DNA of 36,308 bases. Source: a virus (taxonomy: Duplodnaviria > Caudoviricetes). Positions within the stretch are counted from its first letter, which is position 1. Each line of letters opens with the position of its first letter. This document shows, in pieces, positions 2,934 through 36,308 of this stretch. The translations under genes and the position numbers were made by a program. The notes beneath the pieces were generated by a model. That model searched no databases. It was not told where the DNA came from and was given only the letters and a program-made list of their open reading frames with translations. Location of the stretch: positions 1 through 36,308 of the IMG/VR virus record IMGVR_UViG_3300033067_000266. One strand, given 5' to 3'.

Positions 2934-3151
2934 GCCTCATTGATTACACCTGGGTCAAGACCGCGCCCCCGAAGCCCAACGCATTCACCATCCCCGCCAA
3001 ATCAATACAGATAGGCGGGCCATCGACTAAGCAGATTCGAGATTCTGCAACTCGTGTGAACCGAAATACGCACATGCCCACCAGCCAGGCAGACAAAGAC
3101 CGTAGCGCTGCGCTTATCGGTCGGGGCACATGCAATTGGAAGGACCAGTAA
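2930..3151 (+). CDS. Hypothetical phage protein
   Basis: MSLIDYTWVK...; coupled to both neighbours. Confidence 0.65.
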   Translation: MSLIDYTWVKTAPPKPNAFTIPAKSIQIGGPSTKQIRDSATRVNRNTHMPTSQADKDRSAALIGRGTCNWKDQ

Positions 3152-3882
3152 TGGCATCTGCAAACCCATGGTTTCGCATGTACTCCGAGTTTTCGCACGA
3201 CCCGAAAGTACAGATGATGACCGAGGCAATGCAGCGGCGTTACATGATGCTTATGTGTATGCGTTGCAGTAACACGCTTGTAACGTTACATGAAACAGAG
3301 GTGGCGTTTCACCTCCGCATTACAGAGCAAGAACTGGCAGAAACAAAAGCGCTTTTTGTGCAGAAGGGTTTTATCGATTCATCATGGAACCTGCTGAATT
3401 GGGAAAAACGCCAAATGTTGTCAGATACCTCAAACGTTAGAGTGGCTAGGCATAGAGCGCTGCAAAAAGAGAAGCAACAGGAACAAGGTAACGGCGATGT
3501 AACGTTACAGAAACGGAAAAGTAACGTTCTAGATACAGAAGAGATAAGAAGAGATAAGAATAAGAAGAATACAAAGGCAACTGTCGTTGCAACGCCTGAC
3601 GGCGTTTCGCAAAAGGTCTGGTCGGACTTTCTCAAAACTCGAAAAACAAAGGTCACCGACACGGCGATAGACGGCATACGCCGAGAGGCTGAGAGGGCAG
3701 GCATCACCTTGGAGACAGCTTTGGAAACATGCTGCGCCAGAGGCTGGCAGTCGTTCCGTTCCGACTGGCTACGCGAGACAAAGAACGGTCAACCCGTGAA
3801 CAAGCAAACCGCCCTTGAAGACCGAAACCGCGCAGTTGCGGAGCGTTGGGCTAGTCGCGGCATGCTGCCAGGAGCAATCTGA
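3151..3882 (+). CDS. Phage replication initiator (lambda O-analogous)
   Basis: N-terminal WFRMYSEFSHDPKVQMM and NWEKRQ...RVARHR, internal iteron-like repeats, C-terminal VWSDFLKTRK...CCARGWQSF domain. Confidence 0.8.
   Translation: MASANPWFRMYSEFSHDPKVQMMTEAMQRRYMMLMCMRCSNTLVTLHETEVAFHLRITEQELAETKALFVQKGFIDSSWNLLNWEKRQMLSDTSNVRVARHRALQKEKQQEQGNGDVTLQKRKSNVLDTEEIRRDKNKKNTKATVVATPDGVSQKVWSDFLKTRKTKVTDTAIDGIRREAERAGITLETALETCCARGWQSFRSDWLRETKNGQPVNKQTALEDRNRAVAERWASRGMLPGAI
3488..3575. promoter_or_regulatory. Putative replication origin (iterons plus A-rich tract) inside the initiator gene
   Basis: G(T/A)AACG at 3488, 3499, 3510 and 3521 (11-bp period), palindrome TGTAACGTTACA at 3498-3509, then an AGA(T/A)AAG purine tract. 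Confidence 0.6.
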
Positions 3883-14489: not shown

Positions 14490-14801
14490 ATGAGTAAGAA
14501 ACGTGAATACACGCTAGAAGAATCAGTTGTGGCGCTCAAGGGCGGGACCTGTGAGTCTGTAGCGGTTTCCACCACTTCAGCCGTATCGTCTGCCATTTTG
14601 TCTGGCCGCGTGGTGCTGTATAGCAGCGTGGAATGCTTCTTTCGGCAGGGCAGCGGAACACCGGTAGCCCTGGCTACTGGCGTAGATCAAATATTGCCAG
14701 CCTCGACCATGCTGCGGGTTGTCGATATTGAGTCTGGCAACAAGCTTGCATTTAAGACCGCGTCGGGCACAGGTACGGTTTACATTGCGCCAGCAGCATG
14801 A
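14490..14801 (+). CDS. Small beta-rich virion protein (possible spike base)
   Basis: 103 aa ending in GTGTVYI; coupled to the SGNH gene. Confidence 0.6.
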   Translation: MSKKREYTLEESVVALKGGTCESVAVSTTSAVSSAILSGRVVLYSSVECFFRQGSGTPVALATGVDQILPASTMLRVVDIESGNKLAFKTASGTGTVYIAPAA

Positions 14802-16321
14802 GCCTCGGCATTCGGTGTGGGTTGCGCGTTGGTAGCGTGGGTGCGTCAGCGCTTGTTCCAGTATCAAACCCACGCTTTGCGTTGGTCGGTGATTCGCTGA
14901 CCCAGTACGGCAGCAACTACGCAGCGCTGAACACAAAAACATTGACGCGCGACGCGGCGGGTCTTGTTACTGTTGCGTTTACCAATCACGGTATTTTCGG
15001 CACTCCAGACATCAACATCGTCAATTGTTCAGATACATCGTATGAATACTATGGGCCAAAAATAACGATTGATGCCAACAACTTCAGCTACCAGACCAGC
15101 GTAACAGGCTCGGCTGGCAGCATTGCAGGTACTGCGAACACAGCAGCGGTTATCCAAAACCGCATTCAAGGCGTTGGCTATTGGATGTGGCTGCAAAACC
15201 TGATGGGTGGTGGTGGTCGGATGCTGGGGAATTACGGCCAGGGTGGTGACCTAGCCTCTGAAATGGGCGCGGCAGTAACGCTGGCATGCGCTACGGCAGC
15301 CGAGTTTGTCATCATCTGCGCAGGCATCAACGACATTAATAGTGGTGGCGCAAGTGGTGCTACGGTTATTTCTCGTGTTACGACTCACGTTAATACGATC
15401 ATTGCGGCAGGCAAAAAGTGTGTGATTTTGAGCATTACGCCGCTTGGGTCTGCCTACGCGACATCTGGAAAAAACACAGCCACGCTGGATGCCAATGCTG
15501 GCCTATCAGCGCTGGCAAATGGAACAACGATCTTCTATGCTGATGCCCACCAAGACCTAGTAGACACTGGGGCTACACAATTTACAGATGGCCGCGCCTG
15601 GACATGGGCTACATCGGATGGCGTGCATTGGGGGGAACGGGCGGCAAAGCTAATCGCTGGGCGGCTCTATACCGCTATCAGTGCAGCTATCACAGTAACC
15701 AACTGCCTACCAACGGCAAGCGGAAACATGCCGACGATCCCGGGCTACACAGCAATCCGCGAGTATGGGGAGTGGGACTCCACTGGTGGCGGAACGCAGG
15801 GCACAGGATCAACAGGGACACTGGCAACCAAGCAAACTGCACTGAGCAGCAACGCAGCTACCACCATCGTCAATAGTTTGGTTGACCGTGGAAGTAGTGC
15901 GCTTGGCTATTACAACCACCAAGTTATCACGCCCAACGGTGCGCACATTGTTGACAACTACTGGATGACCAACAGCGGAGTGACGATCGGCTCACTTGGG
16001 CTTACGACATCAGACACCGTTATTTTTGCAGTCGAGGTCAGTTTGACAGGTGCCATCGCGGCCAATATGTCGATGTTGTCTCTGGTGATTCAAAGCAACT
16101 CAAGCGGTGCGTTCGGTATTTCGTCCGCTGGTGACTATGTGGCGCTGTCATCGTCTGCTTATCGTAACGACGACCTGACCGATGTCATCCTGATGACTGG
16201 TCCGCTGCTACTCAATGCATCAGTTACCCATTTGCTCTCCAAACTGGAAACGCGTTACACGGCAGCTGGGACAGCCCACACCCTGCGCCAAGGTCGGGTT
16301 GTTTTGTTTAAGAAGGACTGA
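14798..16321 (+). CDS. SGNH/GDSL hydrolase-domain virion protein
   Basis: Blocks LVGDSLT, GQGG, GIND and DGVH, plus a C-terminal beta-sandwich-like region. Confidence 0.88.
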   Translation: MSLGIRCGLRVGSVGASALVPVSNPRFALVGDSLTQYGSNYAALNTKTLTRDAAGLVTVAFTNHGIFGTPDINIVNCSDTSYEYYGPKITIDANNFSYQTSVTGSAGSIAGTANTAAVIQNRIQGVGYWMWLQNLMGGGGRMLGNYGQGGDLASEMGAAVTLACATAAEFVIICAGINDINSGGASGATVISRVTTHVNTIIAAGKKCVILSITPLGSAYATSGKNTATLDANAGLSALANGTTIFYADAHQDLVDTGATQFTDGRAWTWATSDGVHWGERAAKLIAGRLYTAISAAITVTNCLPTASGNMPTIPGYTAIREYGEWDSTGGGTQGTGSTGTLATKQTALSSNAATTIVNSLVDRGSSALGYYNHQVITPNGAHIVDNYWMTNSGVTIGSLGLTTSDTVIFAVEVSLTGAIAANMSMLSLVIQSNSSGAFGISSAGDYVALSSSAYRNDDLTDVILMTGPLLLNASVTHLLSKLETRYTAAGTAHTLRQGRVVLFKKD

Positions 16322-31324: not shown

Positions 31325-31557
31325 GTCAGTTCCTTGGTGATTGCGGCGTCGATGGCGGCGTCCATGTCCTGCTCTGTCTGAGCATGCATAACAGCATTCC
31401 ACCCGTCCATTGACGCAGATTCTTCAAATTCGTTAATCCACTGATTGCGCAACCAGCGATACCGCTCTGCATCCTTGCGCAACGTCTCAATCTCAGCTTC
31501 CAGCGCTTCAATCTTGCGCAACGTCGGCAGGTAGTCGCTCGTTTTTTCGTTTGTCAT
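31321..31557 (-). CDS. Phage protein with a DAERYRWLR motif
   Basis: LRKDAERYRWLR...DAAIDAAI; AGGA RBS. Confidence 0.8.
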   Translation of the reverse strand: MTNEKTSDYLPTLRKIEALEAEIETLRKDAERYRWLRNQWINEFEESASMDGWNAVMHAQTEQDMDAAIDAAITKELT

Positions 31558-31572
31558 CTTGCGTCCTTTGTC

Positions 31573-31627
31573 GCTATATTTAACGTAGCAATGTGCCTAT
31601 ATTCCACGAGGGCTAGAGGCTGGTTTT
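31573..31627. repeat. REP-like double-hairpin element resembling Comamonadaceae intergenic repeats
   Basis: Minus strand reads AAAACCAGCCTCTAGCCCTCGTGGAATATAGGCACATTGCTACGTTAAATATAGC; family resemblance is from recall and was not searched. Confidence 0.5.
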
Positions 31628-31638
31628 ATGGGTGGTAG

Positions 31639-31682
31639 CGCCAACTTATAGAGCAGAGGTTGCTCTATACATTGCGTTATAC
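31639..31682 (+). other. Degenerate attC-like (or attI-position) site A
   Basis: CGCCAAC ... tatagagca/tgctctata stem ... GTTATAC; only 44 bp, but its GTT end is complementary to the R'' box of site B. Confidence 0.55.
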
Positions 31683-31689
31683 GACTCAG

Positions 31690-32010
31690 TCATCGCTTTG
31701 GCTCCTGTGCTGCATTAATGCCACGCGCAACGCACCACGCCAGCACGTTCTTGTCGTTCCATTCTTGCGGCACAGTTTCTAGTTGCTGGGCCAAAAGCGC
31801 GTCGTGCTTTTCGATCCAGTGCGCTACTTGCTTTGCGTACATGTTTGCCGCGCTGCGTTCAGTTTCTAGGGCCAACTGCAATGCCTCGCAAGTGGCTTTC
31901 CATTCAAGTGCTTGCTTTCCAAGCGTCAAAACTTCCTCGTGCAAGCGTTGCTGCATTTTCAAAATTGACGGATTGCTGGTTTGGCGCACCAGAATTTGTA
32001 GGTCGGTCAT
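31690..32010 (-). CDS. Coiled-coil hypothetical protein (cassette 1)
   Basis: 106-aa ORF ATGA-coupled to the upstream gene. Confidence 0.7.
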   Translation of the reverse strand: MTDLQILVRQTSNPSILKMQQRLHEEVLTLGKQALEWKATCEALQLALETERSAANMYAKQVAHWIEKHDALLAQQLETVPQEWNDKNVLAWCVARGINAAQEPKR

Positions 32011-32207
32011 TTCCTAGCCTCCAGCATTGCATCGGCAGCTTTGTAAGCTGCTTTCGCGGCGTTTTCGTCGGTTGTGCAGTGGTCGAAGCAAAGTTGCATC
32101 GCCTTCGCTGCGAAATAGTCACGGAGCATCATTCCTGTAGTTCCGGGGTGAATTGGCTCGTTTGCGGGAACCGGAAATGCTGGCCCGCCTGTTTCAATAT
32201 CAACCAT
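32007..32207 (-). CDS. Conserved phage protein of the GPAFP/LRDYFAAKAMQ family (cassette 1)
   Basis: AAGGA RBS; GGPAFP, LRDYFAAKAMQ, AYKAADAMLEAR. Confidence 0.85.
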   Translation of the reverse strand: MVDIETGGPAFPVPANEPIHPGTTGMMLRDYFAAKAMQLCFDHCTTDENAAKAAYKAADAMLEARK

Positions 32208-32234
32208 TTGATATTCCTTAATAGTTCGTCGTTC

Positions 32235-32287
32235 GTATAACAGGTCAATCAAGGCCGACCTGCGGCGGCTTATCTCCGGCGTTAAAC
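32235..32287 (+). other. attC site B
   Basis: GTATAAC-aggtc-AATCAAGG...GCTTATC-tccggc-GTTAAAC. Confidence 0.8.
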
Positions 32288-32291
32288 CGCA

Positions 32292-32543
32292 TCAAATCAG
32301 CGCGTAGCCATCTTCAAATGCTTTTGCAGGGCTATACGATTCGTAGCCATCGGCGTACACCACGTAGTAGCCTCCTGCCTCTGGGTTGTGTTTGCGCTCA
32401 TAGGCTTCGCTCACAATCTTTGGCGCATAGGCTGGGTTTTCAAACGTGAGTACGGTTACTTCCTCGCTTGCAATACTTTTTATCTTTAATGCCCATACGG
32501 TTTTGTGGCTTACGTACTTTGGCATCTCCATTTGTGTGCTCAT
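32292..32543 (-). CDS. Conserved phage protein with a GYYVVY.DGYES.SP..AFE.GY motif (cassette 2)
   Basis: AAGGA RBS; MPKYVSHKTVWALKI N-terminus. Confidence 0.82.
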   Translation of the reverse strand: MSTQMEMPKYVSHKTVWALKIKSIASEEVTVLTFENPAYAPKIVSEAYERKHNPEAGGYYVVYADGYESYSPAKAFEDGYALI

Positions 32544-32570
32544 GTTCATTCCTTTTGTTGTAAAAATTCG

Positions 32571-32624
32571 GTTTAACTCAACGCTCGGCACGGATGCTCC
32601 GCACCGGGCAGCTATGCGTTATGG
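32571..32624 (+). other. attC site C
   Basis: GTTTAAC-tcaac-GCTCGGCA..cgga/tccg..GGGCAGC-tatgc-GTTATGG. Confidence 0.72.
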
Positions 32625-32897
32625 CGCATGCGCAGCAACCAGCGCCCGTACCGTTGCGACAAACTCCGCCCGCGTTTTTGGTGTTGGCGCTTCTCGAATT
32701 TCGCAAAGTGCCCACCGGTCAAAGTCGGCATATGTATCACCGCACTGGAGCATGTTGTAGCAATTCACTCGCCACTCGCGCCCATGTCCATGCAGATAAA
32801 ACCATCGGTATCCAAGGCCGCGCTTGTCACATCCCTTGTCTCGTGGGCGCAGCCGTGCGGCCCGGCACCAGTCTTTCCATTGCTTTGGTAATTTCAT
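32619..32897 (-). CDS. Hypothetical protein (cassette 3)
   Basis: GGAG RBS, MKLPKQWKDWC; the TAA stop lies within the core of site C. Confidence 0.75.
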   Translation of the reverse strand: MKLPKQWKDWCRAARLRPRDKGCDKRGLGYRWFYLHGHGREWRVNCYNMLQCGDTYADFDRWALCEIREAPTPKTRAEFVATVRALVAAHAP

Positions 32898-32921
32898 GTT
32901 CTTTCTCCAATTAAAAATGCG

Positions 32922-33023
32922 CCATAACATTTCGTTCCATGCGACCCAACACGGCGGGTCGCGCTTGTCTCGTTTACCCGGCACCGTTGCGCCGTGTCGG
33001 TCGCCTGAACTCAGGCGTTAGGT
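32922..33023 (+). other. attC site D (102 bp)
   Basis: CCATAAC-atttc-GTTCCATG-cgacc..acacggcg...cgccgtgt..ggtcg-CCTGAAC-tcaggc-GTTAGGT. Confidence 0.88.
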
Positions 33024-33352
33024 TGCTTCCCGCACTCGCCGCGCAGTTCTTCCATGCACTGCCACAAACGGCCGTCGCCGTTCTTCTGGTGCGTCGTGGT
33101 GTCCCATGCGTCCATTGCGCGCTGCATGACGTGCTGCTGGCGCTCAATCATGGCGGCGGCTTGCGACAAGGCCATCTCAAGGCCCGCGATCACGTCCGCG
33201 CTATTTGTGCCGTCCTGCGGGCTCTTGGCATACAGCGGCTGCTGCTCAATGGCAAGGTCTGTGCCCCACTTCCAGGGCGGAACCTCAGTCAACCGCCACT
33301 GGAATTTGTCCACGCCCATCGTAGGGCGGTAGCGCCACGCCACGATGTTCAT
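33011..33352 (-). CDS. Hypothetical phage protein (cassette 4); C-terminus PNA* encoded by site D
   Basis: MNIVAWRYRP, QPLY; ATGA overlap. Confidence 0.7.
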   Translation of the reverse strand: MNIVAWRYRPTMGVDKFQWRLTEVPPWKWGTDLAIEQQPLYAKSPQDGTNSADVIAGLEMALSQAAAMIERQQHVMQRAMDAWDTTTHQKNGDGRLWQCMEELRGECGKQPNA

Positions 33353-33573
33353 TTCGTCACCTGCGGCGGTGGCGTCTTGCACTCGGCCTGCAAGAACGCA
33401 ATGGTCGGCGCCTCTTTGCGCAGCGCGTAATACTCCACCTGCACCTTGGCGCTGCCGATCATCTTCCCTGCGAGGTTCGCCAGTTCGGCGGCTTCGTTCG
33501 GCTTAATTTCTCCGGCCTTTAGCTTCTCAAAAGTCAAGGCTAGCTCTTTTCTCAATTCGTCGCAGTTTTGCAT
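33349..33573 (-). CDS. Conserved small phage protein (cassette 4)
   Basis: GGAG upstream; MQNCDELRKEL...ANLAGKMIGSAKVQVEY. Confidence 0.8.
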   Translation of the reverse strand: MQNCDELRKELALTFEKLKAGEIKPNEAAELANLAGKMIGSAKVQVEYYALRKEAPTIAFLQAECKTPPPQVTK

Positions 33574-33932
33574 TTCCAAATCTCCCGTTTGAGTTTCAAC
33601 AATTCGCGGTGCGCGTCTACAAGTGGCTCCGGTATCTGCGCGTTTGGTATTGAGTACACCTGCGCAATCTTCCTTCTCACATAGCCCTCTGTCAGCGTGT
33701 CGCGTTCTTTCTTTGCTTGCGCTTTCACCTTGTCGGGGTTTGCGGCCTTGTACTTCGCTTTTATCGCATTGCTTCTGGCTCTGTTTTCCGTTCGCCATGC
33801 AAGCTGCCGCTGCCGTTCCTCGTCAAGATGCAAAGCCCTGTACGCGGCGTTTCGTGCGCTTATCCGATCTTTGTTTGCCGCGTAGTAAGCTTTCCCATTT
33901 GCTGCCTTTTCCGCTTTGTCTTTGTATGGCAT
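33552..33932 (-). CDS. Basic helical phage protein (cassette 4)
   Basis: MPYKDK..YYAANKDRI...LTEGYVRR...LKLKR. Confidence 0.78.
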   Translation of the reverse strand: MPYKDKAEKAANGKAYYAANKDRISARNAAYRALHLDEERQRQLAWRTENRARSNAIKAKYKAANPDKVKAQAKKERDTLTEGYVRRKIAQVYSIPNAQIPEPLVDAHRELLKLKREIWKCKTATN

Positions 33933-33945
33933 GGCTCACCCCATT

Positions 33946-34003
33946 ACATAACAGGTCGTTCGATCAAATTCGCTTCGCTCATTGCTCAACTCCAGCGTTA
34001 CTC
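33946..34003 (+). other. attC site E
   Basis: ACATAAC-aggtc-GTTCGATC...GCTCAAC-tccagc-GTTACTC. Confidence 0.82.
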
Positions 34004-34349: not shown

Positions 34350-35375
34350 TTAATCTGTTTGCAACTCGTGTAGCGCCTTGTCTTTTTCTTCAATATCTTT
34401 TCGATGCTTGTTCAGTGCGGTCCTAATTTTGGATGGCAACTTTCTCCAAACATAGGCACGTTCATCGTTCCCGGTATCTACAACTCCGTCATACTCACCG
34501 TAAGCGCCGATCAAGTCGTCATTGTTGAAGTGGTCAATGATTGCGCCAGCAACAGCCTCTAAAACCTGTTTTATATTGACTGGCAAAGAATCCCCAATGC
34601 CATCCATCGCGCCTTGCTTAACCGCAATTACCTGGCCCGTATTTACAGGCACAACCGGCGCAAGCTCTGCCAATCCTTCTCCGGAATCCACATTCAAATG
34701 ATGGATAGCTGTATCGAGTCGTTCAGTTTTAGGCCAGTATTTGTAAGCCTGTTTGACACAGGTTTTTTTGATCATTTCGCCTTCGTCAGACAGCCATGGG
34801 CCACCACTGCGTGACTTCTTTTCTACGTAGGCTTTCCATGCACTTGAGCGGTCCCGAATAGCGTAAACGTCTGCAATCGTCATCGTGTGAGTTAGGTATT
34901 CACCGTCTGCTGTTTTGATGACAACGTACACACCAACAATCTCGCCACGATCTGTTGAGAACGGGTTAAAACCGTGGTTTGGAGGCTTGTCGTATCCCAT
35001 CAGTTGGAAGGTGTCTCCTTTGTAAACAATCGCAGCCTGCGCCCATTTAACAGACCCTGATTCCATCGCCAAGTCCATCAGCCCCATGTAGCTAATGTCT
35101 AGGCAAATTTTCTTGTCCCGTGGCACAAGATAGGCTTGCTTCTTCGCAGGGTTCAGGCTTAGGCCGATGGCTGCAATGTTGGTAACGGCATCGACAACCG
35201 ACTGACGGTTATTCATTGCTGTAGACATTGCATAGTCGTTCGCCCCGAGTGCCTGAATTGCAAACCCAGCTTCGCGCTCAAAGTTAATATCTTTGGCAGA
35301 CAGAACGGCATTGAACTGCTCTCGGACGCCGTAAATGTCGCCTGACAGCGTGGTTAGTGCGGTTGATACGTTCAT
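34350..35375 (-). CDS. recT: RecT/Red-beta-family single-strand annealing recombinase
   Basis: GLSLNPAKKQAYLVPR, ISYMGL, PW.SD.GEM.KKT.VK.AYKYWP. Confidence 0.92.
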   Translation of the reverse strand: MNVSTALTTLSGDIYGVREQFNAVLSAKDINFEREAGFAIQALGANDYAMSTAMNNRQSVVDAVTNIAAIGLSLNPAKKQAYLVPRDKKICLDISYMGLMDLAMESGSVKWAQAAIVYKGDTFQLMGYDKPPNHGFNPFSTDRGEIVGVYVVIKTADGEYLTHTMTIADVYAIRDRSSAWKAYVEKKSRSGGPWLSDEGEMIKKTCVKQAYKYWPKTERLDTAIHHLNVDSGEGLAELAPVVPVNTGQVIAVKQGAMDGIGDSLPVNIKQVLEAVAGAIIDHFNNDDLIGAYGEYDGVVDTGNDERAYVWRKLPSKIRTALNKHRKDIEEKDKALHELQTD

Positions 35376-36142: not shown

Positions 36143-36308
36143 GCTTTGTCCCGCTGCTCAATCTCAGCACAAACAATGCGCAGTAGGTCGGCTTGTATGT
36201 TTTTAGCAGCGGCCCTAGCAGCGGCCCCAGCAGCGTCCCAAGCAGCGGCCCCAGCAGCGTCCCAAGCAGCGTCCCTAGCAGCGTCCCAAGCAGCGGCCCC
36301 AGCAGCGT
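36139..36308 (-). CDS. C-terminal part of the DAAW-repeat protein begun at 503
   Basis: ...DAAWDAAGAAARAAAKNIQADLLRIVCAEIEQRDKA*; the TGA overlaps the next ATG. Confidence 0.85.
   Translation of the reverse strand, partial: AAGAAAWDAARDAAWDAAGAAAWDAAGAAARAAAKNIQADLLRIVCAEIEQRDKA

Follow-up and report, generated by a model that had tools for sequence, protein, structure and literature searches.

An integrase-less integron array in a phage genome with its cassette genes on the attC bottom strand

Introduction

The closest described relatives of the element analysed here are clusters of attC sites lacking an integron integrase (CALINs) in phage genomes. Qi et al. 2023 described 17 phage CALINs and found that five phage attC sites work with the integrase IntI1 (PMC9892861; this and the other papers cited below are represented by the accessible parts of their text). 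The DNA under study, hereafter the window, is the whole IMG/VR virus record IMGVR_UViG_3300033067_000266 (G000; Duplodnaviria, Caudoviricetes), which is linear, 36,308 bases long and 94% complete, and the element is an array of attC-bounded gene cassettes in its early region. Like the published CALINs, it combines a cluster of attC sites with small open reading frames (ORFs) in a phage without intI, and DNA methyltransferases are found among their cargo as they are in arrays related to the window. The accessible text of that study mentions neither gene inversion, nor a phage attI, nor a phage IntI clade (PMC9892861), whereas the window has an attI-like site with turnover. It calls TJE1 and PH101 typical (PMC9892861). 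Our attC covariance model finds no site in PH101, and MW202573, a phage of the same study, is inverted (locus L422, 2069-3738), with four attC sites on the minus strand and the ORFs on the plus strand.

Class 1 and sedentary chromosomal integrons (PMC4889954, PMC5027507) share with the window the anatomy of attC, a crossover between the G and the TT of the core (G/TT) and the cassette-specific pairing of cassette ends, and share with the window's relatives an intI gene that faces away from attI and the array. They differ in that the phage genes lie on the bottom strand and point toward attI and intI, and in that the window lacks intI, would not need a cassette promoter Pc (no match above shuffles was seen), and carries phage early cargo. 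The IntI proteins of phage arrays also form a separate phage branch. In integrons with a flipped integrase gene, intI and the cassette genes are co-directional as in the phage arrays, but the cassettes there are conventional, whereas the phage arrays keep the regular arrangement of intI, attI and attC and have their cargo flipped instead. Insertions at attG, by which IntI places cassettes outside integrons (10.1101/2022.09.11.507474), are a possible start for phage arrays, although the site in the window is a reused and conserved docking site and not a one-off genomic GTT.

Phage CALINs are already published; the inverted cargo and the phage IntI clade appear to be new. A literature search, with subscription journals and bioRxiv supplements lying outside its coverage, found no report of either. 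On the evidence given below, the element is probably an integrase-less phage integron array in which every gene occupies the bottom strand of attC, and its rearrangement is likely the work of an integron integrase acting in trans.

Results

The array consists of an attI-like site and four attC-bounded cassettes, which extend exactly from 31677 to 33997, the GTT cores that bound the four units being at 31676, 32281, 32618, 33017 and 33997. An initial annotation of the window had given 31677..33997 correctly, and had left unnamed the attI-like site just left of that start.

31645..31682, plus strand: attI-like insertion site, with an 11-bp imperfect inverted repeat, 5-nt loop, 4-nt spacer and GTT core (G at 31676)
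31677..32281, plus strand: cassette 1, ends GTTATAC / GTATAAC, 7/7 complementary
32235..32287, plus strand (top strand): attC1, covariance model score 33.7 bits
32282..32618, plus strand: cassette 2, ends GTTAAAC / GTTTAAC, 7/7 complementary
32571..32624, plus strand: attC2, degenerate, 5/5 spacers, 10 bits
32619..33017, plus strand: cassette 3, ends GTTATGG / CCATAAC, 7/7 complementary
32922..33023, plus strand: attC3, 43.3 bits
33018..33997, plus strand: cassette 4, ends GTTAGGT / ACATAAC, 6/7 complementary, a chimera of two cassette types
33946..34003, plus strand: attC4, final site of the array, 32.0 bits

A CALIN calls for at least two attC sites on the same strand within 4 kb; here there are three at 32-43 bits and a weak one, all on the plus strand. 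In attC1, attC3 and attC4 the R''/R' boxes are accompanied by a left spacer of 5 nt, a right spacer of 6 nt and an extrahelical extra C at L'' position 4, and it was from these spacers and the extra C that the plus strand had been called the canonical top strand. This anatomy holds for the three sites and fails for attC2, whose weight-matrix score is -14 on the plus strand and -27 on the minus. attC2 is supported by its perfect GTTAAAC/GTTTAAC end pair, a bottom-strand fold and contig breaks at 32621-32622. Complementary cassette ends, which are expected from a circular intermediate, are found at 7/7 positions in cassettes 1-3 and at 6/7 in cassette 4, and exchange falls at the G/TT of R', as judged by comparison of sequences only. 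An exact-repeat search of the window does not recover the attC sites.

Set against a classical integron, the record has no intI beside the array, a gene that is present in the relatives G008 and G041; the site at 31645-31682 provides an attI at the 5' end; and all seven cassette ORFs lie on the attC bottom strand instead of the top. The element behaves as an integron, showing every property of a CALIN that could be examined and lacking two classical features, a resident intI and top-strand genes. The gene caller placed all seven cargo ORFs on the minus strand, as first annotated, and two further details of that annotation were recovered. Motifs resembling ribosome-binding sites (AGGA/GGAG) lie 24-27 nt from R'' or closer in cassettes 1-3, and stop codons fall in or near the GTT core: TAA at 32619 in cassette 3, TGA at 33011 inside attC3, and stops 11-14 nt from the core in cassettes 1 and 2. 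A plus-strand promoter-like match at 31551-31580 points at attI, antisense to the cargo (one found, against a shuffle mean of 2.0); a promoter and terminator scan of the window was not above shuffles.

The covariance model was built from 38 attC sites of bacterial genome contigs, picked by length from 54 non-redundant candidates; three of the 38 come from locus L241, later found to be inverted and prophage-like, and the model is not independent of the search pattern. It matched attC1, attC3 and attC4 on the plus strand only, with no minus-strand match at the same places, which speaks for the strand originally assigned and against the minus strand as top. The weight matrix gave plus/minus scores of +39/-14 for attC1, +45/-12 for attC3 and +36/-28 for attC4. 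Folding of both strands favoured the bottom strand at only three of the four sites, and not at attC1, where the top strand is preferred (-5.4 top, -4.7 bottom).

One oriented attC pattern taken from the window was run together with one gene caller on IMG/VR and on GTDB genomes, and gave 65 loci in the former and at least 166 in the latter (about 940 stretches estimated). Among 61 distinct viral sites, 46 had the upstream gene on the bottom strand and 5 on the top strand, and 10 were uncalled (46/51 called), whereas at the 241 bacterial sites among the matches listed it was on the top strand at 181, on the bottom at 20 and uncalled at 40 (20/201 called on the bottom). These site counts are not independent; training the gene caller on the viral or the bacterial set made little difference. 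Counted per locus, 42/47 viral loci were inverted as against 4/79 bacterial ones, among the matches listed and with overlapping loci kept separate. Loci found by protein gave the same picture: among 80 loci with homologs of the cassette-2 protein, 15 contained attC, with 33 hits that without exception lie on the strand opposite the gene, and relatives of the cassette-4 gene, in 62 metagenome loci, gave 62 opposite against 2 same-strand calls.

Polarity was also examined in 242 phage site contexts, from which 13 loci (conventional, doubtful or of other layout) had first been removed. Pairs with nothing but the upstream flank in common had attC bodies of at least 90% identity in 11 of 15 cases, against none of 10 for pairs with nothing but the downstream flank in common and 1 of 600 for random pairs; many of the upstream pairs are pattern anchors, which inflates their similarity, and the central stem is not fixed by them. 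attC bodies follow the upstream flank, and therefore the crossover lies at R' and attC belongs to the gene-start end of the cassette. End pairing was perfect in 78 of 117 relative units (shuffle mean 27.5, maximum 45 in 5,000) and, with the commonest R'' left out, in 36 of 65 (6.0 shuffled); it is cassette-specific. Taken together, these sequence comparisons indicate that the plus strand is the attC top strand and that the cargo genes lie on the bottom strand, a polarity that stands without the spacers too.

Among 50 attC-bearing virus records, four encode an IntI above the TIGR02249 cut-off, and in the relatives G008, G041 and G028 the score is 390-454 bits. The catalytic residues and the IntI-specific insertion were located in G008, G041 and L445 beside bacterial IntIs. 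In G008 and G041, intI is the last gene of the early operon and co-directional with the cargo, and attI lies between intI and the array. With the G008 protein as query 50 viral loci were obtained; in those closer to it, the genes and all attC sites upstream lie on opposite strands. Of 85 IntIs placed in a tree, 27 fall in one branch (Shimodaira-Hasegawa-like approximate likelihood ratio test, SH-aLRT, 100), which is made up of 17 viral proteins with inverted arrays, nine viral proteins without a called attC nearby and L521, which is bacterial and stands beside a phage integrase. All 17 viral IntIs having an inverted array are in this branch, and all 27 bacterial IntIs with conventional arrays are outside it. 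The phages are mixed in their terminase and replication modules. In G011 (L420, L421), inverted arrays occur in both of the operons that flank the replication genes. The viral/bacterial contrast, the polarity tests and this IntI clade all support the phage-specific inverted cassette pool that had been proposed from the window alone.

It had also been proposed that such cassettes would be antisense to Pc if stored in a host integron. The antisense placement follows from the bottom-strand selectivity of IntI (PMC5027507); storage in host integrons was not seen. When bacterial integrons were searched for phage cassette ORFs, the only shared locus was L241, itself inverted, and in these small samples the phage (246) and bacterial (297) cassette proteins overlap there only. 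The cassette-2 protein was found in 2/401 genomes of one order, also a small sample, and in neither case in a conventional array. L241 (535-4538) lies on a contig of a Propionivibrio metagenome-assembled genome, where an inverted array contains Mom-like and PAPS-reductase-like genes; it is likely a prophage and gives a hint at host range. One of its array gene products is 92% identical to a phage cassette protein.

The attI-like site has the spacing 7+4, 5, 4+7, 4, then GTT, which is that of the site that related phages have at a distance of up to about 100 nt from the start of intI. Contigs of four sequencing runs, from four other studies, leave the window after 31679-31680, that is 3-4 nt past the G/TT at 31676, and do so into four different continuations; one is identical to the window over 31486-31680 and another over 31581-31679 before they diverge. 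Six IMG/VR records share the window's attI type, and the five that have downstream DNA carry an inverted array with a different first cassette. Of eight matches to the attI pattern, the two in L598 and L601 fall within ORFs on the plus strand and were set aside as chance hits; a detector that demands the strict inverted repeat of attI misses most integrase-less left ends. A tyrosine recombinase of 379-380 amino acids (aa) lies near the site in 2/5 records with window-type attI. P4-like prophage integrases (L606, 1432-2571; L607, 1133-2275) were seen beside or near window-type attI in G456 and G457, at the place where other phages have intI.

Contigs also break at attC1 and at attC2 (32621-32622). 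Homology to cassette 4, found in 58 loci, never reaches left of 32985, and of its 59 segments 16 begin at 33013-33017 and 7 at 32985-33012, the other 36 beginning deeper in the cassette. The left part of cassette 4 (33017-33507) matches cassettes ending ACCTAAC and its right part (33385-33957) cassettes starting GTTATGT. Cassette 4 is accordingly a homologous-recombination chimera of the GTTAGGT/ACCTAAC and GTTATGT/ACATAAC types, joined in a shared 74-aa gene, and its single end mismatch is due to the fusion of two cassette types.

The attC1 body (32235-32287) occurs on unrelated cassettes with different R'' boxes in L563, L564, L570, L571, L589 and L591, and in run X1 the summed contig depth was about 3,500 at this body against about 140 beside it, which bears on cassette genesis. 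In L536 the same three-gene cassette is present twice in one array with different neighbours (498 and 3004, bottom-strand numbering), and a site near 3446 of L569 (bottom-strand numbering) is a hybrid whose left arm resembles attC1 and whose right end resembles attI.

The cargo genes of the window are as follows.

31690..32010, minus strand: 106-aa ORF of cassette 1, no family
32007..32207, minus strand: 66-aa ORF of cassette 1, GPAFP family (phrog_2201, E 1e-17)
32292..32543, minus strand: 83-aa ORF of cassette 2 (phrog_11049)
32619..32897, minus strand: 92-aa ORF of cassette 3 (weak phrog_30849), TAA stop inside the GTTA core
33011..33382, minus strand: 123-aa ORF of cassette 4, TGA stop inside attC3
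33349..33573, minus strand: 74-aa ORF of cassette 4
33552..33932, minus strand: 126-aa ORF of cassette 4

Their first description as phage-type genes stands for the three of seven that match PHROGs (2201, 11049 and 30849, all of unknown function); a Pfam search gave no significant match for any of the seven. No relative of the 92-aa cassette-3 ORF was found in viral contigs. Homologs of GPAFP had attC hits in 0/80 viral loci, and the family is mostly an ordinary phage gene. The 83-aa cassette-2 protein is predicted to form an OB-like barrel (predicted local distance difference test score, pLDDT, 89.7), and its model is closest to the N-terminal domain of phage L Dec (Z 7.8, root-mean-square deviation 3.1, 80 aligned); with Z under 8, no function was assigned from this Dec-like fold. 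A search of the ESM Atlas with the same protein returned unnamed viral clusters only. In phrog_9467, the N-terminal part is matched by the cassette-2 family and the C-terminal part by the PF13876 protein of the related arrays, a weak hint that the cassette-2 family may have an anti-defence role.

In related phage arrays, 27/70 cassette proteins matched PHROGs at E 1e-5 as against 8/70 bacterial ones, the phage proteins being the 70 with the best scores among 206 representatives, and the bacterial ones having been picked alternately down the ranking of top-strand proteins. Their cargo includes four DNA methyltransferases, a Mom-like protein, two PAPS-reductase-like proteins, a PF13876 protein (9e4w at E 7e-4) and an Acb2/Tad1 hairpin protein; PF13876 corresponds to Acb4 (10.1101/2025.07.12.664507). 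The 246 phage cassette proteins fall into 222 families, many of them unannotated.

By PHROG matches the record has a lambdoid gene layout. The plus strand carries the genes for terminase, portal, capsid and lysis, and the minus strand an early region, which includes RecT and in which the cassette array sits. Two genes of this layout are the following.

3130-3882: O-like replication gene, PHROG match
34350..35375, minus strand: RecT-like annealing protein (phrog_148, E 3e-66), upstream of the array in the same operon

The RecT-like protein is a candidate for the homologous exchanges visible in cassette 4. The GC skew has its minimum at about 3 kb, in agreement with a replication origin close to the O-like gene, but such skew also tracks transcription and was not used as proof. 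A betaproteobacterial host range is predicted as likely, because among the IntIs the nearest named homolog is from Hydrogenophaga (71%). A BLASTN search of the array against 50,697 GenBank phages gave zero matches, and an Rfam scan of the window matched nothing. Elsewhere in the record we observed a YdcK beta-solenoid repeat protein in the early region (784-1536), a lipase-like protein among the head genes (14798-16321) and, at the record end, a 12-nt tandem repeat inside an open frame (36205-36308), which is probably an assembly break.

Discussion

The reading that we prefer, an integrase-less phage array rearranged in trans, has to be held against a number of observations that weigh the other way. 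A profile search with TIGR02249 (IntI) and PF00589 (tyrosine recombinases) found no match anywhere in the 94%-complete record, and none of the six records with the window's attI type has an IntI within 4 kb of the site. The strict attI inverted repeat is present at 1/34 candidate array left ends, that of the window itself, and the covariance model gives attC2 10 bits at an E of 2. Inversion is not universal among phages: TJE1 is conventional, as are 5/47 viral loci, including L210, whose record has an IntI, and in a second viral IntI group (L452, L461; L451-L459) attC lies downstream of intI on the same strand as the genes. Conversely, L497, with a bacterial IntI outside the clade, was scored inverted from a single site. 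The tree itself was a quick search, midpoint-rooted and made without bootstrap or outgroup, in which the group was defined after viewing, and most viral IntIs had been gathered with one clade member as query. Among the exchanges, the attC body that accompanies the 126-aa gene type is attC1-like in seven other loci, where six different cores follow downstream, and a different one in the window; in one contig, of depth 7, a junction on the R'' side links an allele of cassette 2 with the body of attC4. Because of the cassette-4 chimera, the swapped attC bodies and this R''-side junction, not all exchange is at G/TT; homologous exchange, plausibly through RecT, or rare top-strand recombination also acts.

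The alternative that survives best is a relic array, built by an ancestral IntI and now changed only by RecT-type homologous recombination for which attI and attC are no more than short shared homologies. It would suit a record without a recombinase, a RecT gene adjoining the array, a chimeric cassette 4 with attC bodies swapped, and a decayed attC2. It sits badly with backbones that are identical over 99 and 195 nt, separate no more than 3-4 nt from the core and share no further homology, and with end pairs that stay cassette-specific, three of the four in the window being perfect. Since homologous exchange in the shared backbone could still yield such junctions, this alternative is weakened, and we regard it as unlikely.

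Considerably less probable is the action of some other recombinase on these sites, such as host XerC/D or the P4-like prophage integrase found beside window-type attI. The window-type attI is without IntI in 6/6 records, and the 379-380-aa recombinase near the site in 2/5 would supply a candidate, but these proteins look like ordinary arm-binding prophage integrases and the window is without one. Moreover, the attC sites match IntI-type sites of bacterial integrons, and the spacing of the insertion site is the same as that of attI beside a genuine intI. Least credible of all is that the minus strand is the functional top strand, with conventional cassettes in which only the unpaired bases look reversed: R''/R' complementarity is symmetric, some attC sites recombine their top strand at low rates (PMC5027507) and one contig junction is at the R'' side, but the left end holds the insertion site, whose GTT is on the plus strand, while attC closes the right end, and relatives have intI and attI at that same left end, so that the divergence at the insertion site and the tracking of the upstream flank by attC bodies already largely refute it.

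Under the trans-acting reading, the integrase would probably be supplied by the host or by a co-infecting phage whose IntI belongs to the phage clade, and cassettes would excise and insert as circles by ordinary bottom-strand IntI chemistry. RecT-type homologous exchange would likely add chimeric cassettes and swap attC bodies. The array could do without a Pc, as early transcription of the phage would run through it from its far end toward attI and, where it is present, into intI.

Why the genes are inverted may be approached in more than one way. An attC bottom strand folds and recombines more when it serves as lagging template, an orientation that chromosomal integrons mostly avoid (PMC5371416, PMC11023631). 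For genes that run in the direction of a fork leaving the phage origin, the coding strand would be the lagging template, and inverting them would bring the attC strand that recombines to the side on which it folds best. If the origin is at the O-like gene, the leftward fork would have the minus strand as its lagging template, and genes would stay co-directional while the sites are highly active. Both the fork direction and the origin position are assumed here, which is a further point on the opposing side; the inverted arrays in both operons of G011 fit this idea, and G035 (L419), which has inverted sites in both transcription directions, one of them upstream of a primase gene, fits it less well. 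The second possibility starts from the host. As IntI inserts cassettes via the bottom strand (PMC5027507), incoming host cassettes, many of which are anti-phage (10.1101/2024.07.02.601686, 10.1101/2024.07.02.601719), would be antisense to the phage transcript and so silent in the phage. We would give roughly even odds to lagging-strand folding as an explanation of the inversion, and roughly the same to a silencing of defence cassettes that arrive from the host; a founder effect within a single lineage of IntI may also be the reason.

A wider proposal, which we rate at slightly less than an even chance, is that unrelated phages, integrase-less freeloaders such as this one included, share a pool of mirror-polarity cassettes for anti-defence and DNA modification, kept up by an IntI and an attI specific to phages, that inversion acts as a firewall against host defence cassettes, and that the arrays are where de novo cassette formation can be caught. 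Such formation might be caught because the same genes occur both free and as cassettes and one attC body occurs on unrelated genes.

Integrons have been treated as bacterial platforms, and recent work indicates that their cassettes often encode anti-phage defence. If the present reading is true, a phage-side system of reversed polarity would give phages site-specific shuffling of counter-defence genes. The many unannotated cassettes among the 222 families would be a ready list for anti-defence screens, and the origin of cassettes would become testable, as phage genes that exist both free and in cassettes allow a comparison of the two forms.

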